A stretch of 15,439 nt of DNA from Verrucomicrobia bacterium UBA1211 (GCA_002309585.1 DBXN01000137.1:1-15439), one strand, 5' to 3'. Numbered from the stretch's first letter, positions 1 to 12,881 are shown. The notes: generated by a model from the letters alone, not told the origin. Program-made: numbers and translations.

Positions 1-533
1 TCGAGGATGAAGGGCGTACCGTCCTTCCGGATCATCACGTTGGCGGGCTTGACATCGCGGTGCACCACCCCCTGTCCATGCGCGTAGTCCAAGGCCGCGG
101 CGATGGGCGTGAGGATGCGGACCACCTCGGCCTCCGGCAGCCCGGAAGCCTGCGACGGCGAGGGCGCCGCCGCCACATCCGCAAGATACTCGTCCAAAGT
201 TCGGCCGTCGATATAGTCCATCACCAGGAAGGGGTTACCGCCGTTCTCCTCGAAGGCGCGGAGCTGGACGATGTTGGGGTGGACGAGCTTCAGCGAGACC
301 AGCGCCTCCGCCTTCAATTGCGTGTAGGCCCGTTTGTTCTGGACCAGGATACTCGGCAACAGCTTCAGCGCCACGGGACGGTTGTCCAGCTGCGTGTCCT
401 CCGCCAGCCACACTGACCCCATCCCGCCCTGGCCGAGCTGCCGCACCGCGCGGTACCGCCCCGCCAGCAACGTCCCCGCCGCGCTCCCGCCCATCGTCAC
501 ATCATCGTTGATCGTGTTGCTATCCATCGCCAT
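1..533 (-). CDS. Ser/Thr protein kinase (Hanks-type), N-terminal catalytic domain; partial, the 3' end runs beyond the window start
   Basis: Reverse translation reads MAMDSNTINDDVTMGG..GRYRAVRQLGQGGMGSVWLAED..VALKLLP..HRDVKPANVMI... The Gly-rich loop, the VAxK motif and HRDxKPxN are all present. ATG at 531-533 (alternative 525-527) is preceded by a GGAGAAGG SD. It is near-identical to the 5' region of the 12882..14153 kinase gene. Confidence 0.85.
   Translation of the reverse strand, partial: MAMDSNTINDDVTMGGSAAGTLLAGRYRAVRQLGQGGMGSVWLAEDTQLDNRPVALKLLPSILVQNKRAYTQLKAEALVSLKLVHPNIVQLRAFEENGGNPFLVMDYIDGRTLDEYLADVAAAPSPSQASGLPEAEVVRILTPIAAALDYAHGQGVVHRDVKPANVMIRKDGTPFIL
1..533. repeat. Copy A of a ~0.53-kb direct repeat (kinase 5' region). 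Copy B lies at ~13590..14153 in the same orientation.
   Basis: By-eye alignment of 1-533 against 13590-14153 gives roughly 85-90% nt identity, with identical runs over 30 bp (e.g. ggttgtccagctgcgtgtcctccgccagccacac and agctgccgcaccgcgcggtaccgccccgccagca). Confidence 0.75.
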
Positions 534-764: not shown

Positions 765-1919
765 TCATTGCCCGAAGCGCTGCTGGTTGAACTGGTCATA
801 CTGTTTGATCATCGCGGGGGTGACGGAGGAAGGAATGACCTTCACCGCATTCTCCAAATCGGAAACGAGGACCATGGGATCATCCCCCGTCTCCACCCCC
901 CGTCTAAAGGCGGCGAGCCGCGCCTTGCGGACGATACCGACGATATCGCTGCCGGTATAGCCGTCCAGACGCTCCGCCCACACCGAATGGTCGATCTGCG
1001 GTTCGCAGGCGACACCCTTGAACGAACGCTCCAGCATACCCAGACGCGCCTCTCGGTCGGGAAGGCCGATATACAACTTCTCATCGAACCGGCCGGTACG
1101 GAAAACCGCCTCGTCAATCGCCCAAGGTTTGTTGGTCGCCCCGAGGATCAGCAGGATATTGTCGCTCTCCCGGAAACCGCCGACATCGGAGAGAAACTGC
1201 GTCACGATGCGGTTGTCCACCACGGAGGAGCTGGCGGTACGGCGCGGCAGCAGCCCGTCGATCTCGTCCAGAAAGAGAACCGCGACGGGACGCGAAGCCG
1301 CCGTCTTCAGCAGACGGCTCAAGTTCTGCTCGCTCTCGCCGTGCCACTTGGAACGCAACTGCGCGCCGGAGGCGTAGAAGAACGGCGCGGCGATCTCATG
1401 GGCGATGGCCTTGCCGAACATGGTCTTGCCGTTTCCCGGAGGCCCGTAGAGGATCACGCCTCCGCCCGGCTTCAGTTTCATCGCCTTCGCCTTCTCGGGT
1501 TCGCGCATCGGATAGATGATCATCTCCCGGATCGCGGCCTTGGCCTGGGTCATCCCGGCGATGTCGTCAAAGGTCACATCCGGAATCTCAGCAACTTCGA
1601 ATGACTCCCCACCGTTCTCCCCGCCGGCATCCGTCTGAGGCGGGTTGCTGGCCGAAGCGGACTGCGGTCCGCCACCATGCGCGGTGGCGTTATTCCGCTT
1701 CGGCAGTTTCGCGGTTGCGAGCTTCTCGGCGATCTCCAGCCATCCTTCCGCCGTTGTCACATAACTGGCGGCGACCGGTCCCGTCGTCTGCTTCGCCAGC
1801 GCGAAGCAGAACTCCGCCGCCTTGGCGGCATGCAACCGGGCGGCGGGGGCATCACCCGCCTGGATGGCGGCTTCGCACGCCTTCTCATGCTCCGTTTTTT
1901 TATCCGAAAGAAAACTCAT
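765..1919 (-). CDS. AAA+ ATPase of the Vps4/katanin/spastin-like type with an MIT-like N-terminal three-helix bundle
   Basis: Walker A GPPGNGKT, Walker B LFLDEID, second region of homology ATNKPWAIDEAVFRTGRFD. The C-terminal helix IPSSVTPAMIKQYDQFNQQRFGQ resembles the Vps4 C-terminus (..RPSV..DLLK..KFTEDFGQ). The N-terminal ~75 aa is predicted helical and MIT-like. Located 9 bp downstream of the peptidase gene. Confidence 0.85.
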   Translation of the reverse strand: MSFLSDKKTEHEKACEAAIQAGDAPAARLHAAKAAEFCFALAKQTTGPVAASYVTTAEGWLEIAEKLATAKLPKRNNATAHGGGPQSASASNPPQTDAGGENGGESFEVAEIPDVTFDDIAGMTQAKAAIREMIIYPMREPEKAKAMKLKPGGGVILYGPPGNGKTMFGKAIAHEIAAPFFYASGAQLRSKWHGESEQNLSRLLKTAASRPVAVLFLDEIDGLLPRRTASSSVVDNRIVTQFLSDVGGFRESDNILLILGATNKPWAIDEAVFRTGRFDEKLYIGLPDREARLGMLERSFKGVACEPQIDHSVWAERLDGYTGSDIVGIVRKARLAAFRRGVETGDDPMVLVSDLENAVKVIPSSVTPAMIKQYDQFNQQRFGQ

Positions 1920-1928
1920 GGCAGATTC

Positions 1929-3059
1929 CTATTCATGACGGTCCGACAGATCGACCCCGATCGTCTTGAGCAACGCCAAAATCTCCCCCATGCCGATCGC
2001 TTCGGCGGCGGAGGGATTGGCCTGAATAAAGTTGAGGAGCCGTTCGATCGAATGCGGATGGGTTGTCGCGGCCACTCCGCGGATAGACTCGAAAACCGCC
2101 AGCGCAAGTTCCCAGATGATCGTCCCGAGCCCCAGCGTCTCCCGGTATTCGCTGGCGCTCACGACCGAGGAGGCGAACGAATCGGCCTCCCGTTCATGGT
2201 TACGGCTGATCTCGTCATTGAGAGCGGATCCGCAACAGTGCCCCAACGCGAGATGGCCGAATTCGTGGGCCAACACACCGATGACTGTCCCGCAGGCGAG
2301 TTCGACAGTCTTCGTCTTCCACTCCTCAACGGAGAGTACGCCGTTGAGATGACAACTGTTCGCGAAGGTGGCGGCGAGTTCCGATGTCAGGCGTGTACCG
2401 TTCCGCTGAAAGTGCTCCACCATCGCGGCGATCACCCGCTGGAAGGGGACAATCCCGACCCGACCCCCCCACGCCGGATCGTCAACGGCCATTTTCCAGC
2501 CGGTATACGCCGCGGCCATCAGCATGGCGTAACGGACAGCGCCGGAAAAGAGGCAGATCGTGGGGAAGCCCTCAAGCGGATCCATCCGCGCGTAGGCGTT
2601 GACCTGGGCGTGATCCAAAAAACCGCCCAACTCCTTCGAGCGTTCCAGCGAGGTCTCGATGAACTTCAGCTGGAGCCGGGGAACCAATGCCGCATACTGG
2701 CTATTGCTGACGACCGATGGCGAGGAACAGACCATCTCCATCAGTCCTTTGACGAGCTGGGCGTTGAAGGTCCAGACATCCCCGCAAACATCGGGGAAAG
2801 GCGACGGCGCAGAAACCGCCGGCAGGGCAGACACGCCCTCCCCCCGGAACGCGGGAACATCGCCATTTCCGGCACCGTAGTTGGGAAGCGCCTGGCCGAC
2901 GCCACCCGACACCCCGATCCCGGCGCTCCGGCTCTCCGGTCCCTGACCCATGCGCCGCCCAAGATCCTGCTGGCGTTGCGCAAGCCGCTGCTCCAAATCC
3001 CGTTGCCGGTCAGCCAACCGTTTGTTGATGCCGTCCAATGCTGACATAACGTTGCTCAC
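1929..3059 (-). CDS. HExxH zinc-metallopeptidase-like protein (ImmA/IrrE M78-like or M48-like catalytic motif) with an N-terminal coiled-coil/low-complexity region
   Basis: Motif LAHEFGHLALGH, then 14 aa, then NHEREADSFA (an HExxH followed by an ExxA(D/N)xFA third-ligand motif). The track start at 3059 is a GTG that overlaps the upstream stop as GTGA; an in-frame ATG lies at 3045-3047. No signal peptide. Confidence 0.7.
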   Translation of the reverse strand: MSNVMSALDGINKRLADRQRDLEQRLAQRQQDLGRRMGQGPESRSAGIGVSGGVGQALPNYGAGNGDVPAFRGEGVSALPAVSAPSPFPDVCGDVWTFNAQLVKGLMEMVCSSPSVVSNSQYAALVPRLQLKFIETSLERSKELGGFLDHAQVNAYARMDPLEGFPTICLFSGAVRYAMLMAAAYTGWKMAVDDPAWGGRVGIVPFQRVIAAMVEHFQRNGTRLTSELAATFANSCHLNGVLSVEEWKTKTVELACGTVIGVLAHEFGHLALGHCCGSALNDEISRNHEREADSFASSVVSASEYRETLGLGTIIWELALAVFESIRGVAATTHPHSIERLLNFIQANPSAAEAIGMGEILALLKTIGVDLSDRHE

Positions 3060-3694
3060 TTTCCGCCAAGAAGATCTTTCACCCGCTGCTGTCCGGCGGC
3101 GATCCGGTCATCAATGGCCTGGCCGGCCGAGGCGGGCGCCGCCGCGCCGCCGATCTCCGCCGCGACCTGCTGTTCCAGCTCCGACGCCATATCATCGAGC
3201 GACGGGATGTGGTCCTGAAGCGCGCCGTTCGCGCCCGCCATCTCATTCTCGTACATCCGGTTCCAGAAACGGTCGGCGTTCACCTGCTCGCCCAGCATCT
3301 CCTGGGCGGTCCCGAAGACATCCTCGACCCGTTCCGGATCGATCCGGATGATCGCATTGATCTGGCCCAGCGCCTCGGCGAACTGGTTGTCGGACTGCGC
3401 GACCTCCATCTTCGTCAGATACTGCTCGAAGACCCAGCGTTTCTGCTCCAGCTTCATCGCCAGCACCTGCGCCGCGCGAGCCGCGGTCAGCGCACGGTTG
3501 GCCGCCGCCTTCTCGCCGCTCTTCAGCGCCTCGCGCGCCTTCTCCCAACTCTCCTTCGCCTCTTTCTCCAACCGCTTCTGACGGTCGATCACATCCTGCT
3601 TGGCGTTCTCGGCGTCCCGGAACGCATGACGGCGCTCACGCCGCTCCAGACGGCGGCGGGCGGCGGGAAACATGAAATATTTTAAGAATGACAT
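3056..3694 (-). CDS. ESCRT-III/Snf7-like protein (PspA/Vipp1/ESCRT-III superfamily)
   Basis: 212 aa with a basic N-terminus and an acidic C-terminus. The segment IDRQKRLEKEAKESWEKAREALKSGEKAAANRALTAARAAQ follows the CHMP alpha1-alpha2 pattern (LDRExxKLE..IKKAxKxGN..A). The C-terminal amphipathic helix IDDRIAAGQQRVKDLLGGK looks MIM1-like. A strong SD (AAGGAG) lies 6 nt upstream of ATG 3694. Confidence 0.7.
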   Translation of the reverse strand: MSFLKYFMFPAARRRLERRERRHAFRDAENAKQDVIDRQKRLEKEAKESWEKAREALKSGEKAAANRALTAARAAQVLAMKLEQKRWVFEQYLTKMEVAQSDNQFAEALGQINAIIRIDPERVEDVFGTAQEMLGEQVNADRFWNRMYENEMAGANGALQDHIPSLDDMASELEQQVAAEIGGAAAPASAGQAIDDRIAAGQQRVKDLLGGK

Positions 3695-3732
3695 AAGGGT
3701 TTCTCCTTCCTTCGAGGCAGCGGACCACCGTT

Positions 3733-4653
3733 TCAGAAATCGGCCAACGGATCGGCGGGGACAGAAGGTTCCCCGGGCCCTTTCTCCGCCTCCGACGGCT
3801 CCGTCAAAGGCACATCCGGAAGCTCGTCCCCAAACGCGGCCAACGCATCGCTGAAGGATCCGTCATCTTCCCGTTCGTGGCGAACGCCGGCTTTGTCGAG
3901 ATCGCCGATCGCCCCGTCGATGTCATCGGCGGTATCGGCGGCATCCTCAACCTCATCCGTCAGTTTATCGATACCCGCCTCGCTGATACCCTTGAGGTTC
4001 ATCGCCACCAGCTCGTTCATGCGGCCCTTCACCTTGGTCAGTACCGTCTCGTTCTTCAGGTAGGCGGCCATCTGACGTTCCAGCGACTGGTATTCGGCGA
4101 GCGCGCTCTTCAACTCCATCTCCAGAATCTTCTTCCGGGCGGGCGGCGCCGACTGATAGAGCTTCTTCTTGGCGACAATCAACCGGTAAAGCTCATCATA
4201 GCGGCGCGCCACCGGCTCGCGTCGAGCCCGATTCTCCTCGATCTGCGCCTCAATCGTCCGCATCGCCTCCTCGGGATCGCGAATCCCGGCGAGCCGTTTC
4301 GCGAGACTGCCCGCCCCTTGCCCGAGCTTCACCGCGAACTCCCCGATCTGTTTGAGGATCGACGCTTTCTTCGCGGCCGGCAGTTTCGCCGCCGCATTCG
4401 GATCCACTGTCTGGCCCGCTTCGTTTCCATCAATCATTTTCAATTCCTCCGTCTTCTCATGAACGCGACTCTCCGGGCTCAACATCCCGCCGGATTTCCA
4501 ACCGTGTGCCGGACACCGCCGGTTACCATTATGCCAGTGAAAGGCGCAGAAGACACTTCCGCACCCTTCACTCTCACACCGACCGGCGACCGCGTACCGA
4601 TTGGGCAGGACGCGGCCGCAGACCGAACAGACTTGTGGCTCAGAACCGGCCAT
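3733..4653 (-). CDS. Zinc-ribbon / Snf7 (ESCRT-III) fusion protein
   Basis: N-terminal zinc ribbon CSVCG..C.SEGCG..C..H...C.H. The core ARKKILEMELKSALAEYQSLERQMAAYLKNETVLTKVKG...VAMNLKGISEAGIDKLTDEVEDAADTADDIDGAIGDLD aligns with the CHMP4/Snf7 alpha2-alpha4 pattern (KNKRAALQALKRKKRYEKQL...KAMK..DIDKVDELMQDI.DQQE). The C-terminal tail ELPDVPLTEP...PSVP is MIM2-like. SD GAGGTG; the stop of the upstream gene is 1 nt away. Confidence 0.75.
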   Translation of the reverse strand: MAGSEPQVCSVCGRVLPNRYAVAGRCESEGCGSVFCAFHWHNGNRRCPAHGWKSGGMLSPESRVHEKTEELKMIDGNEAGQTVDPNAAAKLPAAKKASILKQIGEFAVKLGQGAGSLAKRLAGIRDPEEAMRTIEAQIEENRARREPVARRYDELYRLIVAKKKLYQSAPPARKKILEMELKSALAEYQSLERQMAAYLKNETVLTKVKGRMNELVAMNLKGISEAGIDKLTDEVEDAADTADDIDGAIGDLDKAGVRHEREDDGSFSDALAAFGDELPDVPLTEPSEAEKGPGEPSVPADPLADF

Positions 4654-4654
4654 C

Positions 4655-5764
4655 TCACCTCACACGCGTGGACGCTTTGATGAACATCACAACCAGCGCC
4701 AGCGCGGCCAGAATGGCCAGCGGCACCACCACCGCCAAAACCGGTTTCGCGCGGAGCGCAGGGAAAAGGGTGCAGATCCGCTCCCACCACCCGTACTCCG
4801 GCGTGTAGGGTTCGGAGATGCAGATCGTGTCGCTCCAGAGCTGTTCGCGCGTGGAGGCCTTTTCGATGCAGGCCTGGATCTCGGCCGTCAGCGTATACTT
4901 CTTTTCGGTCGGAAGCGTCGATACGGGCGTCACCGACAAATCCCGGAGCGATCCGATCAGCAGGGCATCCGCCTGGTCGGGCTTGTCACGGAGCGCGAGC
5001 CGAGCCTCGCCCGGCGTGGCGATGTCGAGATTGACCGTCGTCAGGTCTGTACGGGCAACGGCGTCCCGCACGATATCGGCGGCATAATGGTCCCGATCGC
5101 CCGCGAAGGGCAGGAAGGCGACCCGTTTCACACCCGCCAGTTTCGGCGAACCTTTAATCGAGGCGATGATGGCCTCACGGAGTTTCCCCTGCATGATGTT
5201 CCGCAGCGAGACGGGGATGTCGGTCAACCCTTTCTCCGAGGCGGAGGCATCGGGAATATAGTACCGCTTGGCGAAGATACCGCCCCAGAGATGGCGCTTT
5301 TCCGCGATGGAGGTCGCATGCAGCTCGATCTCAAAGAAGACACACCGCTCGTTGCGCGAGGTATTCCGGATGAATGCGGAGAGGAGAACCTGCGCCGACT
5401 TCAGTTTTCCGAATCGGTCCACCGTGGCGGGATCCAGAATGTCCTCTTTGCGGGCATCCCAGGTGATCTCCTTGAGAATCTCGTTCCACAGCGGATCCTC
5501 CTTACCCTCGACGCAGGTCTTGCCAGCGCGGGTCAACGCGATCTTCAACTGCCCCGCGATCCACCCGTCCGTATCGCCGGCGACCGGAAGGATCGCCACG
5601 GCGGCGGCCGCCGGGATCCCCGCCGTTTTCAAGGCCGCCTCGGCATCCTGAACCGCGCCCTGCACCGCCTGCCTGAAATGCTCATCGACAGGAACCGTCT
5701 GCGCCGCAGCCATCCACGCGACCGCCGCAACCGCCATCCATATCCACCGTTTTTTCATCGTCAT
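4655..5764 (-). CDS. Exported protein with two tandem CsgG/LpoB-like (TolB-N-like) modules and a C-terminal transmembrane anchor
   Basis: Signal peptide MTMKKRWIWMAVAAVAWMAAAQ (start at 5764 or 5758 chosen over the track's 5812; SD AAGGAGG directly upstream). Modules AILPVAGDTDGWIAGQLKIALTRAGKTCV...ILKEITWDARKEDILDPATVDRFGKLKSAQVLLSA and VAFLPFAGDRDHYAADIVRDAVARTDLTTVNLD...ALLIGSL match the CsgG-family pattern. C-terminal hydrophobic helix PVLAVVVPLAILAALALVVMFI. Paralog of 5788..6972. Confidence 0.65.
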   Translation of the reverse strand: MTMKKRWIWMAVAAVAWMAAAQTVPVDEHFRQAVQGAVQDAEAALKTAGIPAAAAVAILPVAGDTDGWIAGQLKIALTRAGKTCVEGKEDPLWNEILKEITWDARKEDILDPATVDRFGKLKSAQVLLSAFIRNTSRNERCVFFEIELHATSIAEKRHLWGGIFAKRYYIPDASASEKGLTDIPVSLRNIMQGKLREAIIASIKGSPKLAGVKRVAFLPFAGDRDHYAADIVRDAVARTDLTTVNLDIATPGEARLALRDKPDQADALLIGSLRDLSVTPVSTLPTEKKYTLTAEIQACIEKASTREQLWSDTICISEPYTPEYGWWERICTLFPALRAKPVLAVVVPLAILAALALVVMFIKASTRVR

Positions 5765-5787
5765 CTCTCCCTCCTTTTCCAGAAAAC

Positions 5788-6972
5788 TCATTTGACGTAA
5801 CCGAGATCCCATTCGGGATGTTTGACCATCAGCGTGTTCAGAAAACCGTCCGAGAATTGTTCCGCATCAAAAACGATCCGGAACGTGAACGTTCCCGTCT
5901 TCGCATCCTGGCGGATCAGCCGCGCCGAGCGCACGCCCTTTTCCGCATTCACCGTCTGGCAGAATTCGGCCTGCAACTTCAACTCATCCGCCGACACCAC
6001 CTTCTCACGAAGCTTCAGCTCAACCGTCGAAACCTTCAACCCGACCTGTTCCGGCGTGAAAGAGGCTTTCACCCACTCGCCCGCCTCGGCGGTCAGCGCG
6101 TTCGCCAGATTCTTCTCCGCGGCGGCCTCGCCCAACCCGCGCGCGCCACTCTTCGTCACCGTCTTCTCAGCGAGCGTACGGGGATTGCCTCCCAAGATCC
6201 GGGTCTTCAGCGAGAGGGAACCGGTCAGTTTGTACCACTCGCCCGTGCGGTCAAACACCTCGCGGGACGCGGAGACTGTAACCTCGACATCGGGAGGGAA
6301 CGGGCTGTCCACGACATAACCCGCCTTGGCCAATGCGTTGCGGATGGCTGACGCGGCATCATCGATCACAACCGCCGCATTTCCCTTCTCGCAACGGACC
6401 GCAACCCGGATCCGGGAAGGATCCGCCATACCCTGCGCCGTCTCACCGATCGTCTTGATCGGCGCGAATTTACCGTCGATCACATTGGCGCCCCACACAT
6501 ACTGCTTGGTCTTGATGGCATAGGCCAACAGATTCAGTTCCGCCACCGTCTCCTTGGGACCGTTCTTGACGATCTCAACGGCGCTTTCGAGGAGGATCTG
6601 CGTGGACTTCAGCTCACCCAACGTGTCGATCGTCGCCGGATCGACGCTCCTCAGGATCGCCTGGCGCTCGTCCCATTTGATCTCGGAGAGAATCCGCTTG
6701 AACCGCGCGTCCTTCTCCTCGTCATTGGCGGTCACGCACGTCTTTCCGGCGCGGGTCAGCGCCTGGATCAGAAGACCCTCGAAATAACCTTCCTGATCAC
6801 CCTTGACCGGAAGGACCGTGATCGCCTTCCCGTCCAACACGGAAACGGACCGGATCTCCGACTCCACCGTCCCGGCGAGTTGCCGTAACGCCGCGCGCTC
6901 CTTTTGGTCAAACGCCAGCAGCGTCAACGGGGCGAGAAAAACCAGCATCAACCCTTTTGCCATTGCCTTCAT
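5788..6972 (-). CDS. Exported protein with CsgG/LpoB-like modules (paralog of 4655..5764)
   Basis: Signal peptide MKAMAKGLMLVFLAPLTLLA. Modules ITVLPVKGDQEGYFEGLLIQALTRAGKTCV...FKRILSEIKWDERQAILRSVDPATIDTLGELKSTQILLESAV are near-parallel to the downstream paralog. The ATG abuts the stop of the upstream lipoprotein gene (TAAATG). Confidence 0.65.
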   Translation of the reverse strand: MKAMAKGLMLVFLAPLTLLAFDQKERAALRQLAGTVESEIRSVSVLDGKAITVLPVKGDQEGYFEGLLIQALTRAGKTCVTANDEEKDARFKRILSEIKWDERQAILRSVDPATIDTLGELKSTQILLESAVEIVKNGPKETVAELNLLAYAIKTKQYVWGANVIDGKFAPIKTIGETAQGMADPSRIRVAVRCEKGNAAVVIDDAASAIRNALAKAGYVVDSPFPPDVEVTVSASREVFDRTGEWYKLTGSLSLKTRILGGNPRTLAEKTVTKSGARGLGEAAAEKNLANALTAEAGEWVKASFTPEQVGLKVSTVELKLREKVVSADELKLQAEFCQTVNAEKGVRSARLIRQDAKTGTFTFRIVFDAEQFSDGFLNTLMVKHPEWDLGYVK

Positions 6973-7554
6973 TTATTTCCTTCCTTTCACGTTTTGATCC
7001 AACCAATCCGCAATCGCGCAGGCCAAAGGCGCAACCAAGACCTTCTCTGCATCGGCGCGGCCCAATTTGCGGGGCCCCTGCACGACAAAACGTTTGTCTA
7101 CCGTCTCTGTCCCGTCCGCAGCGGCAAACGCGATCCGTGCGTCAACCTGCCCATCGCAAACGAACCACTCGTCCAGCCTGGCCTTCACGGAGGAGGACGC
7201 GGAGAGAGTCAACCCGGCATAGGGCACGTTTCCGTCAATGAAACGATACCCGCGTTTCGTCAGCTCCTCACGGAGCCGGACGGCGATATCCGCCGCAAAT
7301 GTCGCTCCCGTCGCCCCGCTCGCCGCCACGCTGACCGTCACGGTATCGGTCACGGGTTTCGGCTGTTCCTGAACCGGCGCGGACTCGGCGACCGGCGCGG
7401 GAACGGGTTCAGCAACCGGCGCGGGCGCTTGAACCGCCGGAGACTCCTGGACCACCACAACCTCCACCGGTATCGGCCGCTGCGTGACGCATCCCGAAAA
7501 CACAACCGCCGAAAACGCGGCTACCGCCGTCAATAGACCATTCACCTTCTTCAT
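6973..7554 (-). CDS. Lipoprotein with a Pro/Ala-rich linker and a C-terminal alpha/beta domain
   Basis: Start chosen at MKKVNGLLTAVAAFSAVVFSGC (lipobox VFSGC; ATG 7552-7554; AAGGA ~10 nt upstream) rather than the track's 7761. Linker PAVQAPAPVAEPVPAPVAESAPVQEQPKP. The C-terminal segment FAADIAVRLREELTKRGYRFIDG resembles the CsgG/LpoB-like module of its neighbours. Confidence 0.65.
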   Translation of the reverse strand: MKKVNGLLTAVAAFSAVVFSGCVTQRPIPVEVVVVQESPAVQAPAPVAEPVPAPVAESAPVQEQPKPVTDTVTVSVAASGATGATFAADIAVRLREELTKRGYRFIDGNVPYAGLTLSASSSVKARLDEWFVCDGQVDARIAFAAADGTETVDKRFVVQGPRKLGRADAEKVLVAPLACAIADWLDQNVKGRK

Positions 7555-7570
7555 TTCATAATCCTTTCGT

Positions 7571-8989
7571 TTACTCTTTACGCTGATGATAACGTCCGGC
7601 TCTGTACGGAACGCCAGCCACCTCAACCGACATTCCCGGTACGATCTTTCGCCCAGAAACCAAGAAACACTTTCCATTCCAAACCCAGTCACATCCCCCG
7701 CACGGAACTTTTCGGCTGACAATGGCGACAACCTGTTCGTCCAACCCGTCATCACGGACAAGCGTGAAACCGGAAATCAGGCCGTCGTCACAGATGAAAA
7801 GTTCCAACGTGAATCCCACAACCCCCTCCGGATAATTCGGAGCCTTCGCGCCAAAAGTCAGGTGTGAGACACCCCGGGGAATAACCATCCCGCCCGGGCC
7901 GACCTCATTCCCCTCCACCTGGACACCCCAGGTGGACGGCTCCCCTTCCATTCCGTCAAAGATCCGCAGTCTTCTCCCATCAGAGACCGTGAGCCTGAAG
8001 TGGCGGCGGGAAAGACACATCGATCGGCTCTTATCCATCTGATGACATTCACGGTCAAACACCCGGACCACGTAATCACAGGTGTCGTGACGGCCGCAGA
8101 CCATTGTCTCGTCGGAGCCCAACGCCCACAGTTGGATCATTTTCCCCGCACCCGTCAACGTCAGTCGGGGGGCGCCCCCCTCAAGGTCGACCGCCAACTG
8201 ATGCGTCACCGCCCGCGACTGCTCAACCCGCGGATCCCGCAGATTGATCCCGCTCACGGCCGGCGAATGGTACTGGAGCAAACTCGCGCCCGCCCCGTTC
8301 ACTTCCACCTTCGTATCGATAGTGATGCTGTTTGGGCTGGCGTGATCCAGCACCCGAACGGGGAAAACCGCGCTGAACACATCCGGATCATCCATCCCGT
8401 CCCGTACGCAGAAGAAGCGCACCGTCAACTCAACGGTTCCCGCAACCTTCGGACAGACATTCAGAGGGAAAGTCAACCGCTCCGTGGTGGGCCGGTAACC
8501 CAGCGGATGGCGCTGCACCTCATTCGGCCCGTTGAAAAGCGCCACCGTCACATCGGCATAGAGATCCTCCACCGCCTGGAACACAATCTTGACCGGCGAT
8601 GACCACCCCTTCCACATGGTTTCTGGGAACGTCACCGTCGCACCGAAGGGCATTCCATCCGGGATTTCCACCGGCGGCGCCACCGACGCGCCGAAGGGCG
8701 GATACCCCGTCATCCCGCCGAACGGTGCGATCGGATCAAGCGGCCGCAACGGCGGCAGGTTCGCGGGAGCCGCCGGGTTGAACCCGGAGGGCGCTCCCGC
8801 AGGAGGAGCCGCGGGTTGCGGACACGCGCGTTGCGCGACATCCGGCACGGGCGCGGGGGCCGGCGCGGGCACAGCGACGGGCTCCGGCTCGCAGAGCCGC
8901 CCCGCCGCCGGGCCGCAATTCTCGCAAAAGGTGCCGACCTCGCCCAGCAACCCGCAAAGGGGACATTTGACTTCCGCCATGCGAACCAT
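7571..8989 (-). CDS. Zinc-ribbon / Pro-rich linker / beta-rich middle domain / C-terminal FHA domain protein
   Basis: N-terminus CPLCG...CENCG. FHA-like region GRHDTCDYVV..SRRHFRLTVSDGRRLRIFDGMEGEPSTWGVQVEGNEV (GR...SRxH...D..StnGt.vng pattern). The SD AGGAAGGA abuts ATG 8989, so the in-frame ATG at 8980 (MAEVKCPLCG) may be the true start. Confidence 0.75.
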   Translation of the reverse strand: MVRMAEVKCPLCGLLGEVGTFCENCGPAAGRLCEPEPVAVPAPAPAPVPDVAQRACPQPAAPPAGAPSGFNPAAPANLPPLRPLDPIAPFGGMTGYPPFGASVAPPVEIPDGMPFGATVTFPETMWKGWSSPVKIVFQAVEDLYADVTVALFNGPNEVQRHPLGYRPTTERLTFPLNVCPKVAGTVELTVRFFCVRDGMDDPDVFSAVFPVRVLDHASPNSITIDTKVEVNGAGASLLQYHSPAVSGINLRDPRVEQSRAVTHQLAVDLEGGAPRLTLTGAGKMIQLWALGSDETMVCGRHDTCDYVVRVFDRECHQMDKSRSMCLSRRHFRLTVSDGRRLRIFDGMEGEPSTWGVQVEGNEVGPGGMVIPRGVSHLTFGAKAPNYPEGVVGFTLELFICDDGLISGFTLVRDDGLDEQVVAIVSRKVPCGGCDWVWNGKCFLVSGRKIVPGMSVEVAGVPYRAGRYHQRKE

Positions 8990-8996
8990 ATCCTTC

Positions 8997-11198
8997 CTAC
9001 TTCACGAGGTTGATTGAAGGCGGCGGAGGAGGCGGGGGCGTCTGCGTCTGATTGATCACGTTCACCGGACGCTCCACCGCGCGGGCGGCGATATCATGAA
9101 GCATCCGCATCGTCTCCTCATCATGGGCGACCCGCTGGTCAGTCATGCGCTTCATCTCTTCGACAAGCTTGTCATGCTGGGCGACCTCGGCCGCGGCTTG
9201 CGCGGAAGCCGCCTGGGCTTCCGCCTGAGCCTTGGCCGCGAGAGCCTGCGCGGCAGTCGCCGACCGTCCCGCCTCCCGGGCCAGAAGCTGCTCCGCCGTC
9301 ATCCCCTTCTCCGCCTCAAGCCGCGCCTTCTCCAACTCCTGCTCCTGCTGGAACCGCGCCAGTTCCATCAGTTGCCGCCGCTGTTCCGGGTCCTTCTCCA
9401 GCGCAGCCATCTCCACCGGGCTGAGGCCCTTAATCACCGTTGCAAGGCTCTCCCGTTCCTTGGCGTCCAACTCCTGAAGCCGCGCGAGATTCTTGAGCTG
9501 GTTCTCCATCCCCTCCTGTGCGATCTCCTGGGCGGTCCGGGTTTCATAGTTTTTGACGTCGATCCCGGTTTTCGCGACCGTCGCGTCGGCTTGGGCATCC
9601 TTGATCCGATCGGAACGGTGGATGTCTCCGATGCCCGACTGGTGCTCAGCGTCTTTCCGTTCTTCATCCCGCAACACGTCACTGACCGCGCTCTTCCCCT
9701 GCGCGGTGGCGAGCGACTCGGCGATCTCATGTTCCCGGATACGGCTGTCCTTCTCGAACCGATGGTCAAGCTCGCGGCGTTCCCGCTCAAACTGGTGCTC
9801 AAGCTCCGCAAATTCACGATCATGTTCCCGCGACAGCTTCGCCAGCTCCTCCTCCGCTCCCTTGGCATCGATTTGCCCATCGGCGGCCATCCGCGCGATC
9901 TTCAGCTCGACCTCGCGGGAGAGATCGGAAAGTCCCTTCTCCTGCGCCAGTTGCTTGATGTACTCCTCGGAATCCTGGGCGCGCCGGGCCGCCTCGCGCT
10001 TCCGCCGCTCCTCCAGATCCGCCTGATCCCGTTCGGAATCCGCCGTAATGACCAGTTCACGGTAACGCTCCGCCTCGGACTCCGCGCGCTGCGTCAGCTT
10101 ATGCTCGCGACTCTCGCGCTCCTCGTCAAGGATGTGCTCATGCAGTTTCTTATCATATTCCAGCTGACGGCGCTTTGCGTCCAGCTCGCCGTACCGCTTA
10201 CGCATCTCCTCGTATTCGGCGCTGACGAAATCGACATATCCCACCCGCACCAGCTCAAGGCCGGAGCGTTTCAGCAGATCCTTGAGCGCGCGCCCGATCG
10301 CATCCTCAAACCGGGGTCTGCGTTCCGGATCTTTCACCAGATCTTCGATCTTCGACTGCAGGCAGAGATCCTTCACCGCAGCCGAAGCCTCGGACAGCAG
10401 CCACGTCCCGATATCTTCCGCGAAAAGTCGGTTCGCCCGGTCCTGCCCCGTGCCGTCCGTCCCGGCATCCGGCTGCCCCGCGCCGCCCGACGCCTGAACA
10501 CCCCGTTCCGATTTCATCACATTGGCGAGGAACGCGTTCGCCTCACCCGGATTGAAACGGATCGTCACCTCCGCGATGACCTTGACCGGAAGCTCCTCGG
10601 CAGTCCTCATTCCCGGGAAATCCACCCGAAAAACGCAGTCGCCTGAATCGACCATCACCACACTGTGCGGCGGCGGATTGCCGAACCAGTTGATGGTCCG
10701 GAGCGTCCCCTCCGGGTTGTGCCGCCCAGGCCCCAAAATCGCCGCCTTCTTCCCGGCATCCAGAAGGATCGCCACCGTCCCCTCCTGGATTTTGAGTCCG
10801 CCCTTGGCGATGCCCGTCACGTCGGAAAGCTCAATCCGCTGGGCGAAAACGCCCGGATCGCGGTCCCAGACCCCGCCGGCGAGATTCGGCCGCTCTTCGG
10901 GATGAAGCGGATAGTTGCAGTGCGGGCAGAAGCGGGAATCGTTCCCGACCCATGCGTGGCAGGAGGGGCACTTCACCCAGCCGTTCGGCGCCCCGTGTCC
11001 GCATTTGGAGCAGAACCGCGCCTTCTTGGAGACCGAATGCCCGCAAATCCCCCAGCCCTTCTGGGCGAGCACGGATTCCTTGTTCCATCGCGACGCGCCA
11101 AGCAGCAGCGTCTTCGCCTCATCCAGCTTCGCACCCGTGAGCGCCTGCCCCGTCTTCAAATCAACAATCGCCTCGCACGTATCATGAAAGAGTCCCAT
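8997..11198 (-). CDS. Double zinc-ribbon / SPFH (band-7) domain / long flotillin-like coiled-coil protein with a poly-Pro C-terminus
   Basis: N-terminus CSKCG..CPSCH..CPHC. SPFH-like segments IQEGTVAILLDAGKKAAILGPGRHNP...VDFPGMRTAEELPVKVIAEVTIRFNPGE and RALKDLLKRSGLELVRVGYVDFVSAEYEEMRK. Then ~400 aa of charged coiled coil with flotillin-like EA repeats (AKAQAEAQAASAQAAAEVAQ), ending TPPPPPPPS. SD AGGAGAA upstream. Confidence 0.7.
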   Translation of the reverse strand: MGLFHDTCEAIVDLKTGQALTGAKLDEAKTLLLGASRWNKESVLAQKGWGICGHSVSKKARFCSKCGHGAPNGWVKCPSCHAWVGNDSRFCPHCNYPLHPEERPNLAGGVWDRDPGVFAQRIELSDVTGIAKGGLKIQEGTVAILLDAGKKAAILGPGRHNPEGTLRTINWFGNPPPHSVVMVDSGDCVFRVDFPGMRTAEELPVKVIAEVTIRFNPGEANAFLANVMKSERGVQASGGAGQPDAGTDGTGQDRANRLFAEDIGTWLLSEASAAVKDLCLQSKIEDLVKDPERRPRFEDAIGRALKDLLKRSGLELVRVGYVDFVSAEYEEMRKRYGELDAKRRQLEYDKKLHEHILDEERESREHKLTQRAESEAERYRELVITADSERDQADLEERRKREAARRAQDSEEYIKQLAQEKGLSDLSREVELKIARMAADGQIDAKGAEEELAKLSREHDREFAELEHQFERERRELDHRFEKDSRIREHEIAESLATAQGKSAVSDVLRDEERKDAEHQSGIGDIHRSDRIKDAQADATVAKTGIDVKNYETRTAQEIAQEGMENQLKNLARLQELDAKERESLATVIKGLSPVEMAALEKDPEQRRQLMELARFQQEQELEKARLEAEKGMTAEQLLAREAGRSATAAQALAAKAQAEAQAASAQAAAEVAQHDKLVEEMKRMTDQRVAHDEETMRMLHDIAARAVERPVNVINQTQTPPPPPPPSINLVK

Positions 11199-11212
11199 TT
11201 CCGTTCTCCTGT

Positions 11213-11569
11213 TTACTGATGTTGGTCATTTCCCGTTAAAGTGTGTTCCGTGCACTTCCGCACGCCCCGTCGCGTCCAGCAGTCGAAGCAGATCGGTTTC
11301 CCGCATCCCTCCTCCGTGCATCCCTGCCGAAGCGACCCGTTCGACCGGTAGAACGTCCCGCATACGCTACAGACGCCCCCTTCGGCCGCGGTCCGTTTAC
11401 TCCGTTCCAAATACCCGTCAAGATCGCTCTTCGCCACACGATACAGCTTACCCAGCCGCGCCGCCGGCAGCTCCCCGCTCCGGACCAGCCTGTAAATGAG
11501 CTGATAGGTGACACCCAGCATCTCCGCCACCTCCTCAAGGCTCATGTATCCCGTCTCTTTCCCATCCAT
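11213..11569 (-). CDS. Excisionase/MerR-type HTH DNA-binding protein with a C-terminal zinc ribbon (putative regulator of the cluster)
   Basis: MSLEEVAEMLGVTYQLIYRLVRSGELPAARLGKLYRVAKSDLDGYL matches the excisionase-family HTH. C-terminal zinc ribbon CSVCG...GCTEEGCG..C..C...C. Perfect SD AGGAGG lies 5 nt upstream of ATG 11569. It is the first gene after a promoter-like region. Confidence 0.8.
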   Translation of the reverse strand: MDGKETGYMSLEEVAEMLGVTYQLIYRLVRSGELPAARLGKLYRVAKSDLDGYLERSKRTAAEGGVCSVCGTFYRSNGSLRQGCTEEGCGKPICFDCWTRRGVRKCTEHTLTGNDQHQ

Positions 11570-11587: not shown

Positions 11588-11613
11588 CTTTGATGGTTAT
11601 GACTTTATCAAAG
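11588..11613. promoter_or_regulatory. Candidate operator: 7-bp perfect inverted repeat ctttgat-N12-atcaaag overlapping the -10 region of the HTH gene
   Basis: ctttgat at 11588-11594 and atcaaag at 11607-11613 (8/8 except one position if extended). It sits between the predicted -10 and the transcript start of the HTH gene. Confidence 0.45.
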
Positions 11614-11668
11614 TTACTTTCTGATGTCAATTAGGTATTTTATTTTATTTTTGTTTATTTTTGTTTTA
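11602..11668 (-). promoter_or_regulatory. Sigma70-like promoter for the HTH-led operon: A/T-rich UP-like element, -35 TTGACA, 17-bp spacer, -10 TAAAGT
   Basis: On the minus strand, TTGACA is the reverse complement of 11625-11630. A 17-nt spacer (rc 11608-11624) leads to TAAAGT (rc 11602-11607). The upstream 11636-11668 is an A/T-tract block (ttgtttattt repeats), unusual in a ~65% GC sequence. The leader is ~25 nt to the SD/ATG. Confidence 0.5.
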
Positions 11669-11703: not shown

Positions 11704-12708
11704 TCACACCGAGTGTTCCATATACACAACCCCCTCACCACCCCCTCGCCCAACCTGGTTACCACCCCCTTGAGGGGTTGTAACATACACCGTCCGCCCC
11801 CCCTCATTCCCCCGTGCAATCGCGGCCGCGATGTAATTGAGCCCCAACAGCTCGCCGCGCCGCGGCGGCTCATCCGGATCGGCCATCCGCGAAAGGACCA
11901 GCAACCGTTTCTGAGCGAAGAGTTGCGGCTCGACCCCATGCGGCCGGTATGCCAAATCCAAAAAAGTCGGCGCGAGCCGGATCATCGGTACGCCATCCGT
12001 TTCCGACAACGTCTTGAACACCATTCGCTCGCCCGGCGAGAAGAAGGTGGAAATGTAGAGATACCCCTTCTCCACCGCGCCGCGGCGGCACACCGCGACC
12101 ACCCGCGGTAACGCCGCCTCCGGCACCTTCCGCGAAATGCGGAGCGACACCAGACGTCCCTTTTCCAGCAGGTCACAGTTCCCCACCGCGCGCCAAAGAT
12201 CATCCTCCCCCGCCTCCGGCACGGCAAATGGCTCGACCACATGCATCAGTGATCGGTCCCCATGCATCAACCACCATTTGAGCGGGTTGTTTCGAATGTA
12301 GGCATCCACCGCACGGTTCATGCGTTCCGATGTGCAGATGAGATCGTGGTAGCCCGCCTCCCAAATGCCCGGCGCACGCCCGGCAATGTGGTAGTGGGAA
12401 AACTGCTTGAAACGACCGACGAACGCGCCGATCTTCTTCACGGCATCAGCGCACCCCGCCGGCCAAGTGAAACGGAGATGCGCATGGTCGGGCATGACCG
12501 TCCAGGCACGAAGGGTGATGAATCCCGCGAAATGACCCGCTGCTTCGAGAAGGTCACGCTTCACGATCCCGCCCGCCTCCGAAAGCGCCACGCCATCGTG
12601 ATCCACACGGCCAAACAGCGGGCGGCGCGGTTCGAGGCAGATCGTCACAAACATCGATCCCCCGCGCGCATAGTCATACCCGCTGAATCTCCGGTGTGTC
12701 TTGTGCAT
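11704..12708 (-). CDS. REP-associated tyrosine transposase (RAYT / IS200-like Y1 HuH transposase) with a C-terminal extension
   Basis: MHKTHRRFSGYDYARGGSMFVTICLEPRRPLF (RAYT N-terminal signature), HuH motif MPDHAHLRF, catalytic Tyr motif AVDAYIRNNPLKW. Start placed at ATG 12706-12708. The 59 codons upstream of it in the track ORF are encoded by the tandem repeat array and are judged non-coding. The 3' boundary is uncertain; a core of ~165 aa is followed by ~170 aa of unknown function. Confidence 0.8.
   Translation of the reverse strand: MHKTHRRFSGYDYARGGSMFVTICLEPRRPLFGRVDHDGVALSEAGGIVKRDLLEAAGHFAGFITLRAWTVMPDHAHLRFTWPAGCADAVKKIGAFVGRFKQFSHYHIAGRAPGIWEAGYHDLICTSERMNRAVDAYIRNNPLKWWLMHGDRSLMHVVEPFAVPEAGEDDLWRAVGNCDLLEKGRLVSLRISRKVPEAALPRVVAVCRRGAVEKGYLYISTFFSPGERMVFKTLSETDGVPMIRLAPTFLDLAYRPHGVEPQLFAQKRLLVLSRMADPDEPPRRGELLGLNYIAAAIARGNEGGRTVYVTTPQGGGNQVGRGGGEGVVYMEHSV
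11765..11780. repeat. Small palindrome cccccttgaggggttg, related in reverse orientation to the 11673-11699 REP-like element
   Basis: cccct-tg-agggg with a flanking ggttg. It approximates the reverse complement of the first palindrome (caacccccttgaagggttg). It lies inside the 3' end of the RAYT ORF. Confidence 0.35.
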
Positions 12709-12740
12709 CACCCACGCGCCCTTTTCCCACTGCCGTTGTT

Positions 12741-12881
12741 CCAACCCGCGCGCACCCCCCCGCGCCCAACCCGCGCGCAACCCCCTCGCACCCAACCCGC
12801 GCGCAACCCCCTCGCGCCCAACCTGCGCGCAACCCCCTCGCGGGGCCCAACCTGCGCGCAACCCCCTCGCGGGGTTGCGCG
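12741..12881. repeat. Tandem array of about five 26-bp REP-like units (cccaaccYgcgcgcaaccccctcgcR). The last copy forms an 11-bp perfect-stem palindrome (12855-12881).
   Basis: Copies at 12741-12764 (degenerate), 12765-12790, 12791-12816, 12817-12845 and 12846-12881. Last copy cgcgcaacccc-ctcgc-ggggttgcgcg. The array begins 1 nt after the kinase stop codon (12882-12884). There are no unique spacers, so it is not CRISPR. Confidence 0.7.

Follow-up and report, generated by a model that had tools for sequence, protein, structure and literature searches.

Does any bacterium possess the pairing of an ESCRT-III protein with a Vps4-like AAA ATPase, a pairing that reviews deny to bacteria, where a Vps4-like ATPase appears absent (PMC7619361)? 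The question is raised by a 15,439-nt stretch of DNA from Verrucomicrobia bacterium UBA1211, referred to in its entirety as the window. At 765-11569 it carries ten genes (G1 to G10), all on the minus strand, in which a reading made from sequence alone (the sequence-only reading) recognized ESCRT-III-like proteins, an AAA ATPase, a membrane scaffold, signaling proteins, a peptidase and an envelope arm. That reading considered the combination undescribed, and no published description was found in a literature search.

The ORF coordinates agree with a co-directional series having gaps of 0-38 nt and two 4-nt overlaps. The successive gaps from G1 to G5 are 14, 7, 16 and 0 nt; G5 and G6 overlap by 4 nt (ATGA, with the G6 start at 5791), followed by gaps of 1 nt (G6-G7) and 38 nt (G7-G8), a second 4-nt overlap (GTGA) between G8 and G9, and a gap of 9 nt between G9 and G10. 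For G6, a start at 5791 or later is probable, as against the longer ORF reaching 5812. For G4, a 262-aa ORF with a TTG start was rejected as an over-extension, the real start being the ATG of MKKVNG. The promoter proposed ahead of the HTH regulator gene was recovered as a predicted sigma-70-like site on the minus strand at 11602-11630 (TTGACA-17-TAAAGT, extended TG) with 10 of 12 consensus matches, preceded by an A/T-rich tract (11636-11667) and followed by an AGGAGG ribosome-binding site. It is the better of two minus-strand sigma-70-like sites in total between 500 and 12000, both intergenic and upstream of the HTH gene. No convincing intrinsic terminator was found beyond 765.

The expectation that the neighborhood would be conserved in related genomes was borne out: it recurs in ~30 distinct contigs from the classes Kiritimatiellia and Lentisphaeria, and the locus is a conserved operon of these bacteria. 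Where downstream sequence suffices (27 loci), the Snf7 gene is followed by the AAA gene in 23 cases. Of the 22 loci that extend 7 kb or more upstream, 19 have a second ESCRT-III-like gene, 16 an SPFH gene and 12 an HTH gene (counts by tblastn at E≤1e-5, a threshold that gives too low a count for the divergent FHA and envelope genes). Because the peptidase is a variable accessory, the conserved core comprises nine genes, not the ten originally taken as the unit. The family was recovered in 28 of 185,579 representative species genomes, flanking genes differ between closely related genomes, and the relatives found include none on a plasmid or on a contig of phage or viral origin.

Judged by profile matches, G8 (3056-3694, minus strand) is a bona fide member of the Snf7 family, as the sequence-only reading had supposed. 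The protein itself matches Pfam Snf7 (PF03357) at 4.8e-5, its 23.5 bits falling just under the 27.3 cut-off, and 23 of 24 diverse family members match the same profile at E≤0.01 (best 1.8e-7). Yeast Snf7 is the top PDB match of the family profile (E=0.046), and one relative bears the NCBI name ‘Snf7 family protein’. G8 has a hydrophobic and basic N-terminus, a charge of +10 in its N-terminal half and -12 in its C-terminal half (kept in the family at +10 and -13), and, beyond a Gly/Ala-rich linker, a conserved C-terminal helix with the consensus IDxRIAAGQxRVKxxLEGK.

The same reading had counted a second Snf7-like protein, G7 (3733-4653, minus strand), for which no significant profile or fold match was obtained. 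Against Pfam Snf7 it scores E=0.17, with 0 of 30 family members matching at E≤0.01; matches to Snf7 in the PDB are sub-significant (E=0.1-0.6), and hhalign of G7 against the G8 family found nothing. Its top Foldseek match is Asgard ESCRT-IIIB (E=0.16), and the ESCRT-III superfamily is among its best fold matches, at sub-significant levels. G7 is predicted to consist of an N-terminal Zn domain, an ESCRT-III-like helical hairpin (core charge +12) and an acidic C-terminal tail (-21), with a conserved C-terminal helix of consensus DALAxF. The ESCRT-III superfamily is marked by a basic N-terminal core and an acidic, autoinhibitory C-terminal region; this charge pattern is present in both G7 and G8, and it is from predicted topology, charge pattern and sub-significant matches that we call G7 ESCRT-III-like. 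The PspA_IM30 profile (PF04012) matched neither G7, G8 nor their relatives.

G10 (765-1919, minus strand) is a single-cassette classic AAA protein (Pfam AAA, 9e-34) with a predicted three-helix N-domain and a Vps4_C-like tail. It matches NCBIfam CdvC at 5e-56 (model positions 87-366 of 370; 190 bits versus an equivalog cut-off of 650) and CDC48 at 7e-60 (203 bits), and Foldseek returns p97 D2 (8e-21) and Metallosphaera sedula Vps4 (1.5e-19), both at ~33-34% identity; by these sequence and fold scores the AAA core appears no nearer to one of Cdc48 and Vps4 than to the other. For the lid and tail the nearest match is a Cdc48-like D2, and core plus lid score best against Cdc48/p97 D2 and VAT. Vps4_C is matched by 8 of 15 family C-termini, the best (4.5e-4) below the cut-off. 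The AF2 model has N-terminal helices at 2-21, 24-43 and 48-69 (pLDDT 85-94), a disordered linker at 76-106 and a C-terminal helix at 368-382, and the Vps4 beta-domain insertion in the small AAA domain is absent between its lid helices. Of the proposal that G10 is an MIT-AAA Vps4-like ATPase, the AAA cassette stands, and the MIT domain stays putative: neither Pfam nor the family profile searched against the PDB found MIT in the N-domain, and hhalign against VPS4A, VPS4B and yeast MIT gave a local match to helix 3 alone (E=0.073). Adjacency to ESCRT-III genes is criterion 2 in the definition of archaeal Vps4 (PMC11188069), and G10 is encoded beside such genes.

The upstream genes encode a candidate scaffold and putative signaling components. 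G2 (8997-11198, minus strand) contains a double zinc ribbon, an SPFH/Band_7 domain, a ~350-aa coiled coil and a Pro-rich tail (Pfam Zn_Ribbon_1 2.5e-8, DZR 3.5e-7, Band_7 4e-7). Its Band_7 match (PF01145, residues 136-347) scores 30.7 bits, above the 23.6 cut-off, and relatives are also annotated Band_7, in keeping with the SPFH/flotillin-like protein that had been suggested. No membrane anchor of its own is predicted for G2. G3 (7571-8989, minus strand) comprises a zinc ribbon, a Pro-rich linker, a middle domain, an FHA domain and a C-terminal domain. Its identification as an FHA protein was upheld mainly through relatives: G3 itself matches FHA (PF00498) at 2.9e-3 (18.4 bits versus a 20.7 cut-off), and 10 of 14 family members match at E≤0.01 (best 9.3e-8). 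The best PDB match of the G3 family profile is the Sulfolobus Zn-ribbon plus FHA protein ArnA (1.4e-5, via the Zn-ribbon region), and the profile also matches the Rad53 FHA domain in the PDB. The Hanks-type kinases noted on the flanks are likewise present: directly downstream of the AAA gene lies the 5' part of a Ser/Thr kinase gene (1-533, minus strand), which runs off the window and has a paralogue in the kinase gene at 12882-14153. Of 20 loci long enough downstream to judge, 12 have a same-strand kinase no more than 2.5 kb past the AAA gene. G1 (11213-11569, minus strand) is an HTH_17/excisionase-type DNA-binding protein (Pfam HTH_17 2.8e-16, TIGR01764 6.8e-17) with a C-terminal Cys/His Zn domain. 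This domain and the Zn domain at the start of G7 can be aligned over 48 aa (38% identity, E=1e-7), and every Cys and His is matched.

Three proteins with signal peptides form the proposed envelope arm. G4 (6973-7554, minus strand) is a lipoprotein with the lipobox FSGC and no Pfam match, and its C-terminal domain is common to the second half of G5, as tblastn searches with G4 and with G5 residues 176-387 give overlapping matches in loci L004 and L013. G5 (5788-6972, minus strand) is a secreted protein with an N-terminal LpoB-like module and further domains, and G6 (4655-5791, or to 5812 in the longer ORF, minus strand) has an LpoB-like module, a C-terminal transmembrane helix and a short basic tail. 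The transmembrane anchor and basic tail are kept in the relatives L001_7202, L002_7023 and L007_5255. G5 and G6 have in common a domain of ~150 aa (blastp 1e-20 to 1e-25), of which 11 of 20 copies match Pfam LpoB (PF13036, best 7.3e-6) and one matches CsgG (PF03783, 0.042); the copies in the window match neither profile, and the domain profile found nothing in the PDB. CsgG/LpoB-like modules, earlier ascribed to all three proteins, are thus retained, via relatives, for G5 and G6, and G4 is without one. Some relatives add an outer-membrane beta-barrel-like protein.

The peptidase slot is occupied in the window by G9 (1929-3059, minus strand), a Lit/U49-like metallopeptidase with an N-terminal helical tag. 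The anticipated HExxH domain is present (HEFGH), in a protein of Lit/U49 type instead of the M78 family. Matches to Pfam Peptidase_U49 (3.9e-5, 23.8 bits versus a 23.9 cut-off), PADLOC Lit (1.7e-8) and NCBIfam Lit (1.1e-6, 28 bits versus a 274 cut-off) indicate a distant relative of Lit, not an orthologue. A G9-like gene is present in 4 of 33 related loci; in L032 and L036, whose G8 is 90-91% identical to that of the window, a caspase-like Peptidase_C14 fills the slot, and in L001, L002, L006, L024, L028 and L034 it is empty. M4 and trypsin-like peptidases sit elsewhere in related loci, outside the G9 slot, and only about a third of loci carry any recognizable peptidase. An N-terminal helical tag is common to the Lit-like, caspase-like and M4 peptidases, three unrelated families. 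The variable peptidases and differing genomic neighborhoods fit a conflict system too.

Taken with the conserved gene order, these assignments incline us, if not strongly, to the reading that the locus encodes a bacterial ESCRT-III/AAA membrane-remodeling machine, phospho-regulated, located at the inner membrane and equipped with a trans-envelope arm. In Bacillus, SPFH proteins mark the site for PspA, and they have this role in archaeal ESCRT loci too; G2 would similarly oligomerize at the inner membrane, on its cytoplasmic face, and mark the site. There G8 and G7, each with a basic hairpin core and an acidic tail, may co-polymerize on the membrane. G10 would grip their C-terminal helices via its three-helix N-domain, and its ATP-driven extraction of subunits would remodel or sever the membrane. 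Assembly could be placed under phosphorylation control by G3, with its zinc ribbon and FHA domain, and by the Hanks kinase encoded next to the operon, and G4, G5 and the membrane-anchored G6 could link the site with the cell wall and the outer membrane. The homologous Zn domains of G1 and G7 offer a possible feedback route analogous to PspA-PspF, and the interchangeable peptidases may be recruited via their common, amphipathic N-terminal helix. The machine most likely serves the cell when its envelope is damaged or attacked, through repair or through abscission of damaged membrane or vesicles. Housekeeping division is probably not the role, because the family is found in so few species genomes and has differing neighbors in close relatives.

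The same machine could serve another purpose, as an anti-phage, abortive-infection or programmed-death system, in which the kinase, FHA and HTH proteins would sense attack, the tagged peptidases would be effectors, and the ESCRT-III-like proteins and AAA ATPase would constitute a regulated platform or a membrane-damaging or membrane-sealing effector. We consider such a conflict role unlikely, though deserving of serious attention. Four peptidase classes (Lit-, caspase-, thermolysin- and trypsin-like) occur at the loci, the Lit-like enzyme of the window is swapped for C14 in close relatives, and the common tag resembles the adaptor logic of effector-associated domains, but most loci have no recognizable peptidase and the slot is empty in the six named above. 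The match of G9 to the Lit phage-exclusion protease and the resemblance of the G1 HTH to MAD1 of MADS (PADLOC mad1) point in the same direction, but PADLOC-DB 2.0 gives no system-level match, only isolated ones (mad1 for G1, Lit for G9, IetA and TRIP13 for G10), and the IetA matches (5e-28) are weaker than those to CdvC/Cdc48 and reflect generic AAA similarity. The rarity of the family and the different flanking genes in each genome would also suit a conflict system, but relatives were not found on phage or viral contigs or plasmids, and a large periplasmic arm is unusual among defence systems.

A further alternative, which we regard as improbable, dispenses with ESCRT-like remodeling: G10 would be a Cdc48-like unfoldase feeding an adjacent peptidase, with the coiled-coil proteins as adaptors or substrates. 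This would suit the best scores of its core and lid, against Cdc48/p97 D2 and VAT, its match to IetA, the ATPase of an ATPase-protease pair, and the peptidase gene that directly precedes the AAA gene in three loci (the window, L032 and L036). However, most loci have no peptidase beside the AAA gene, and the Snf7 gene is adjacent or nearly so throughout; the four peptidase folds are unrelated and have no known docking to AAA rings; and the Snf7-family membership of G8, together with the SPFH and envelope proteins, points to the membrane. Chance co-location, or mis-called genes in a high-GC contig without joint function, might be suspected from the many long spurious ORFs in such DNA and the several sub-threshold assignments in the window, but it is refuted by a gene order recurring in ~30 independent contigs of two bacterial classes, and by consistent family-level profile matches, and is left with a negligible probability.

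Among known systems, the membrane-remodeling machine proposed here resembles the archaeal ESCRT systems outside Asgard (the ‘Halo_FHA’, ‘Meth_adaptin’ and ‘Main’ groups; Makarova et al. 2024, PMC11188069) in combining one or more ESCRT-III genes with a single-cassette Vps4-type AAA ATPase. These archaeal groups add, depending on the group, an FHA protein, an SPFH protein with coiled coil and zinc ribbon, and Ser/Thr kinases, and the window unites all these partner types in one operon. It differs in its diderm bacterial host, in having no sequence-detectable MIT and no wH/ESCRT-II-like, adaptin-like or CdvA components, and in adding a periplasmic LpoB-like/lipoprotein arm, an HTH-Zn regulator and tagged peptidases. 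Our wider proposition is tentative, and we give it slightly less than an even chance: that PVC diderms possess a genuine machine of Snf7-type ESCRT-III and Vps4-like ATPase, the first in Bacteria, with an SPFH scaffold and FHA/kinase signaling as in archaea and, as unique additions, LpoB-like lipoproteins across the periplasm and tag-recruited, interchangeable peptidases, either acquired from archaea or a relic. If true, either archaea passed on a machine that was then fitted to an envelope of two membranes, or ESCRT-III and an AAA ATPase were partners before Archaea arose.

Within bacteria, the Bacillus pspA-ydjGHI genes likewise encode an ESCRT-III-superfamily protein together with SPFH and zinc-ribbon protein(s), and YdjI, as the work is cited in PMC11188069, brings PspA to the membrane. 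Proteobacterial PspA-PspF offers a possible parallel in coupling a transcription factor to an ESCRT-III protein, the corresponding link in the window being the G1/G7 Zn domain. Unlike the PspA/Vipp1 systems, the window has a Snf7-matching rather than PspA_IM30-matching protein, G8, and a classic AAA ATPase. Vps4-like ATPases have been described in bacteria, among them Verrucomicrobia and other members of the PVC group (Ravi et al. 2024, PMC11237479; e.g. ACB74714.1 of Opitutus), and the authors infer action near the membrane; there a TPR-6TM gene takes the place of snf7 in the operon, whereas in the window two ESCRT-III-type genes are kept, with other partners. Lit (e14 prophage) and IetAS resemble the window in the Lit/U49-like HExxH domain of G9 and the IetA matches of G10, but the scores lie far below family cut-offs, as for Lit above, G9 is facultative, and the window has no IetS-like subtilase.

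Eukaryotic ESCRT-III/Vps4 is comparable in its Snf7 subunit with basic core, acidic tail and hydrophobic N-terminus, in its second, divergent subunit and in the peptidases associated with the machinery. By contrast, the window is without ESCRT-0, -I and -II and a ubiquitin link, and G10 lacks the Vps4 beta-domain and has an AAA core that is no nearer to Vps4 than it is to Cdc48. An analogy for the peptidases is offered by calpain-7 and by AMSH and USP8, two deubiquitinases, which ESCRT-III recruits via MIT-MIM contacts, whereas the peptidases of the window and its relatives carry a short helix in place of an MIT domain.

The ten tightly packed minus-strand ORFs at 765-11569, numbered G1-G10 in order of transcription, form a system that is real and conserved, is apparently previously undescribed and, on present evidence, appears to operate like an ESCRT-III/Vps4 machine. 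They encode an HTH regulator (G1, 11213-11569), an SPFH scaffold (G2, 8997-11198), an FHA protein (G3, 7571-8989), an envelope arm of three proteins (G4, 6973-7554; G5, 5788-6972; G6, 4655-5791 or 4655-5812), an ESCRT-III-like protein (G7, 3733-4653), a Snf7-family protein (G8, 3056-3694), a peptidase (G9, 1929-3059) and an AAA ATPase (G10, 765-1919), all on the minus strand. The co-directional close packing described in the sequence-only reading is confirmed, with intergenic gaps of 14, 7, 16, 0, 1, 38 and 9 nt (range 0-38 nt) and 4-nt overlaps at two junctions, G5/G6 (given the 5791 start) and G8/G9. A 262-aa ORF with a TTG start was rejected for G4 as an over-extension, the true start being the ATG of MKKVNG.... 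The promoter proposed ahead of the HTH gene is likewise supported. Just two sigma-70-like matches were found on the minus strand in the 11.5 kb scanned, both immediately upstream of G1. The best of these, TTGACA-17-TAAAGT with an extended TG (11630-11602, minus strand), matches the consensus and lies between an upstream A/T-rich tract and a downstream AGGAGG ribosome-binding site. No clear intrinsic terminator was found 3' of G10, and an Rfam scan of the window found no RNA families.

G7 and G8 had both been described as Snf7-like, a description that is established for G8 but not for G7. Clustering at 90% identity divides the G8 family into at least 271 groups, and 23 of 24 diverse members match Pfam Snf7 (best 1.8e-7), with none of the members scanned matching PspA_IM30; among solved structures, yeast Snf7 ranks top against the family profile. 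The exact G8 sequence has no record on look-up. The N-terminus of G8 is hydrophobic and runs into a basic cluster (MSFLKYFMF...RRRLERRERR); the first half of the protein carries a charge of +10 and the second -12, and an invariant C-terminal helix comes after a Gly/Ala-rich linker. G7 consists of an N-terminal Zn domain and a helical part, and the helices predicted in its AlphaFold model (pLDDT 81; residues 127-168, 171-221, 225-258 and 265-272) match those of ESCRT-III in order and length, with a charge of +12 in the hairpin and -21 in the tail. All its scores to ESCRT-III are sub-significant (Pfam Snf7, E=0.17; PDB Snf7, E about 0.1; Foldseek, in which Asgard ESCRT-IIIB ranks first, E=0.16), and G7 is therefore called ESCRT-III-like, not a proven member. 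No G7-G8 homology was found by hhalign. The public annotation of the contig (NCBI-derived P0241, 3733-4434) gives a 234-aa product that starts at G7 Met73 and lacks the Zn domain; this domain is kept in relatives, whose matches span about 90-100% of the 306-aa ORF.

G10 is a single-cassette classic AAA ATPase (AAA, 9e-34), which aligns nearly end to end with the NCBIfam CdvC model at 190 bits and scores as high with the CDC48 model (203 bits), both far under cut-off. In its structural model (pLDDT 77), residues 2-69 form an N-terminal three-helix bundle predicted with confidence and residues 76-106 a disordered linker; the AAA domain has no beta-domain insertion, and a helix lies at the C-terminus. 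The tail (...IPSSVTPAMIKQYDQFNQQRFGQ) matches Vps4_C in 8/15 relatives, and the solved proteins nearest to the lid and tail are Cdc48-like D2, p97 D2 and katanin. Of the proposed MIT-AAA ATPase the AAA part stands, but an MIT domain is not recognised by sequence: the N-domain is strongly conserved across the family, yet MIT was found neither in a Pfam scan of 16 G10-family N-domains nor by comparison of the family profile with the PDB, and an hhalign comparison with three known MIT domains (human VPS4A, human VPS4B, yeast Vps4) was negative or insignificant. G10 is not established as a Vps4 proper; it would count as one under the second criterion of PMC11188069, an ESCRT-III gene neighbourhood, the first being an MIT domain. 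Two other routes to its placement were rejected. An exhaustive search (1.84 billion representatives) was uninformative because the scores of multi-cassette AAA proteins add up and dominate, and its full-length single-cassette matches showed no MIT in a Pfam scan; Foldseek of the whole model did not distinguish p97 from Vps4.

The neighbourhood is conserved in related genomes, as anticipated. When GTDB was scanned with one genome for each species, 28 loci came up, every one in a metagenome-assembled genome of Kiritimatiellia or Lentisphaeria (some labelled Verrucomicrobia); exact-protein look-ups added eight contigs. ORFs in the related loci were picked on the operon strand alone, because antisense ORFs win six-frame selection in high-GC DNA. 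At a tblastn threshold of E<=1e-5, the AAA gene lies 3' of G8 in 23/27 loci, G7 is present in 19/22, SPFH in 16/22 and HTH in 12/22, and a kinase lies directly 3' of the AAA gene in 12/20. In Kiritimatiellia the HTH, SPFH and FHA genes are followed by the envelope genes, then G7 and G8, then a variable slot and the AAA gene, often with a kinase after it. Lentisphaeria loci also begin with HTH, SPFH and FHA, go on to G8, AAA and kinase, and have G7 and the envelope genes a few kb further. The genes flanking the locus vary genome by genome, and no relatives were found among the viral contigs of IMG/VR or the plasmids of PLSDB.

The SPFH/flotillin-like assignment of G2 is secure: its SPFH/Band_7 domain, which scores above the Pfam cut-off, lies between a pair of zinc ribbons and a ~350-residue coiled coil, and the protein has a proline-rich end. 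For G3 the window copy matches FHA weakly, and the assignment is carried mainly by the architecturally equivalent proteins of related loci, of which 10/14 match FHA, the strongest at 9.3e-8; among solved structures the family's best match is Sulfolobus ArnA, a zinc-ribbon and FHA protein. Of the three proteins thought to carry CsgG/LpoB-like modules, G5 and G6 do share a ~150-aa periplasmic module (Pfam LpoB in 11/20 copies, best 7.3e-6; CsgG in one), but G4, whose signal peptide carries the lipobox FSGC, is a lipoprotein, and its C-terminal domain corresponds to the second half of G5. In G6-type proteins a C-terminal transmembrane helix leads into a short basic tail. In one related locus (L022:4908-7358) a single protein carries four tandem LpoB-like modules, G5 and G6 having one each. 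The envelope arm of two others (L001:7929-8597, L002:8245-8928) includes a ~225-aa signal-peptide protein ending ...GF(R/K)QEF; it matches OMP_b-brl weakly (E=0.003) and may be an outer-membrane beta-barrel missing from the window version. G1 is an HTH regulator as supposed, its DNA-binding domain being of the HTH_17/excisionase type (2.8e-16), and after it comes a Cys/His-rich domain (11213-11390). The latter is homologous to the Zn domain at the N-terminus of G7 (4474-4653), the two being 38% identical over 48 residues (E=1e-7), with every Cys/His ligand aligned; the G7 domain is weakly zf-CRD-like by Pfam in 20/30 relatives.

G9, previously taken for an M78-like peptidase, instead has a Lit/U49-like HExxH domain (Pfam U49, 23.8 bits against a cut-off of 23.9; PADLOC Lit, 1.7e-8). 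The peptidase is an accessory at a variable position. In related loci the slot between G8 and the AAA gene is empty (L001, L002, L006, L024, L028, L034), or holds a caspase-like Peptidase_C14 (L022, and L032 and L036, close relatives of the window with G8 90-91% identical), a small membrane protein (L007, L013, L025) or apparently selfish or unrelated inserts (L008, L009, L031). Outside the slot, one locus has a thermolysin-like M4 peptidase (L004_6676) and two have a trypsin-like one (L012_4215, L029_2209), while L004, L007, L016 and L025 contain additional Lit-like copies. The small membrane proteins form a single-pass family (L013:10077-10505, L025:10654-11022, L007:10653-11195) with the motif KPLLEWTEAEKA...NPxLWTxAEKKxEWW and no Pfam matches. 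By eye, the inserts resemble a GxxExxY family protein (L009:7100-7705), a four-helix bundle (L008:920-1354) and a Y1 transposase (L031:647-1171); in a fourth locus the slot holds an AAA_14/DUF4143 ATPase (L015:10907-12061). The Snf7-AAA intergenic region appears to tolerate insertion.

Three unrelated peptidase families, Lit-like, M4 and C14, share an N-terminal amphipathic helix, or tag (e.g. LDDIERRIDERMAEIDRRIG, LEEIEAKVNARMKEINERIG and IDARIDARIKEIDAKIG), which ends ...EIDxRIG and in the window occupies the N-terminal ~40 codons of 1929-3059. Searched against 514 ORFs, an HMM made from the N-termini of three Lit-like proteins alone recovers those of the caspase-like proteins (1.9e-6, 1e-5) and that of the M4 peptidase (1.4e-5), the next-best match being 0.018. 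Tagged peptidases of related loci lie at L004:6676-8553, L004:8573-9535, L016:2345-3319, L032:10648-11655 and L036:10648-11637. Derivation of the tag from the G8 C-terminal helix is speculation and carries no weight as evidence; an HMM of the G8 C-terminus misses the tags, and the reverse search matches that helix at E>1 only.

We favour, on balance, a machine in which G2 would provide a membrane-proximal scaffold, G7 and G8 would polymerise on the inner membrane, and the three-helix domain of G10 would grip their C-terminal helices for ATP-driven subunit extraction. In Bacillus, PspA is localised by the SPFH protein YdjI, and archaeal ESCRT loci contain SPFH/coiled-coil/zinc-ribbon proteins (PMC11188069). 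Assembly may be gated through phospho-threonine by G3 and the kinase, G4-G6 may connect this site with the cell wall and outer membrane or signal the state of both, and the tag may recruit the peptidase to the assembly. The Zn domain common to G1 and G7 could let the two compete or pair, which would provide feedback like that of PspA-PspF. The small number of representative genomes, the varying neighbours and the peptidase swaps among close relatives count against a housekeeping function, for example in division, and a response to envelope damage or attack fits. The main rival, a dedicated conflict or abortive-infection role, is possible but doubtful, being weakened because most loci have no peptidase and no known defence system matches. 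A plain AAA-plus-protease module is improbable.

The closest known systems are the non-Asgard ESCRT systems of archaea, in which Vps4 and ESCRT-III occur with FHA proteins, SPFH/coiled-coil/zinc-ribbon proteins and Ser/Thr kinases (PMC11188069). In the current view, Snf7/CdvB-type ESCRT-III with Vps4 belongs to archaea and eukaryotes, and bacteria have PspA/Vipp1 alone, without a Vps4-like partner. Snf7-type proteins were described in archaea and eukaryotes by Liu et al. (PMC8281802), ESCRT components were considered not identifiable in bacteria (PMC11188069), and a 2025 review states that a Vps4-like ATPase 'appears absent in bacteria' (PMC7619361). Ravi et al. reported scattered bacterial Snf7 homologues and bacterial Vps4-like ATPases, Verrucomicrobia included, with a TPR-6TM gene displacing snf7; the G1-G10 operon is not among the systems they reported (PMC11237479). 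A full-text literature search of partial coverage found no description of the operon, so that the combination appears new as far as the search reached, and an earlier description is possible. A bacterial machine of this kind would be a new case in which to test the timing and mode of origin of the ESCRT-III/AAA partnership, in PVC bacteria, long discussed for eukaryote-like cell biology, and would let coupling to a peptidoglycan wall and outer membrane be studied. It would also provide a compact biochemical system of two subunits, one ATPase and one scaffold, with mechanistic hooks in the shared peptidase tag and in the Zn domain common to the regulator and one ESCRT-III-like subunit.

The flanking Hanks kinases noted in the sequence-only reading are present as two paralogues on the minus strand (1-533 and 12882-14153) with near-identical N-termini (...TINDDVTMGG...), the first starting ~230 nt downstream of G10 on the same strand. 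Two related contigs (L014, L018) carry up to five Hanks kinases within 20 kb, and the background frequency of kinase genes in these genomes is therefore high. Five tandem copies of a 26-nt unit, CCAACCCGCGCGCAACCCCCTCGCGC (12741-12871), separate the upstream kinase gene from an ORF that weakly resembles an IS200-like Y1 transposase (11704-12885; Y1_Tnp, E=0.006) and may be a REP-like array; since the array falls inside the annotated 5' end of this ORF, the ORF is probably over-extended. The 230-nt spacer from the AAA gene to the downstream kinase gene contains two short 7-nt tandem arrays (648-705), CTCTTCC x3.9 and CGTTGAG x4.
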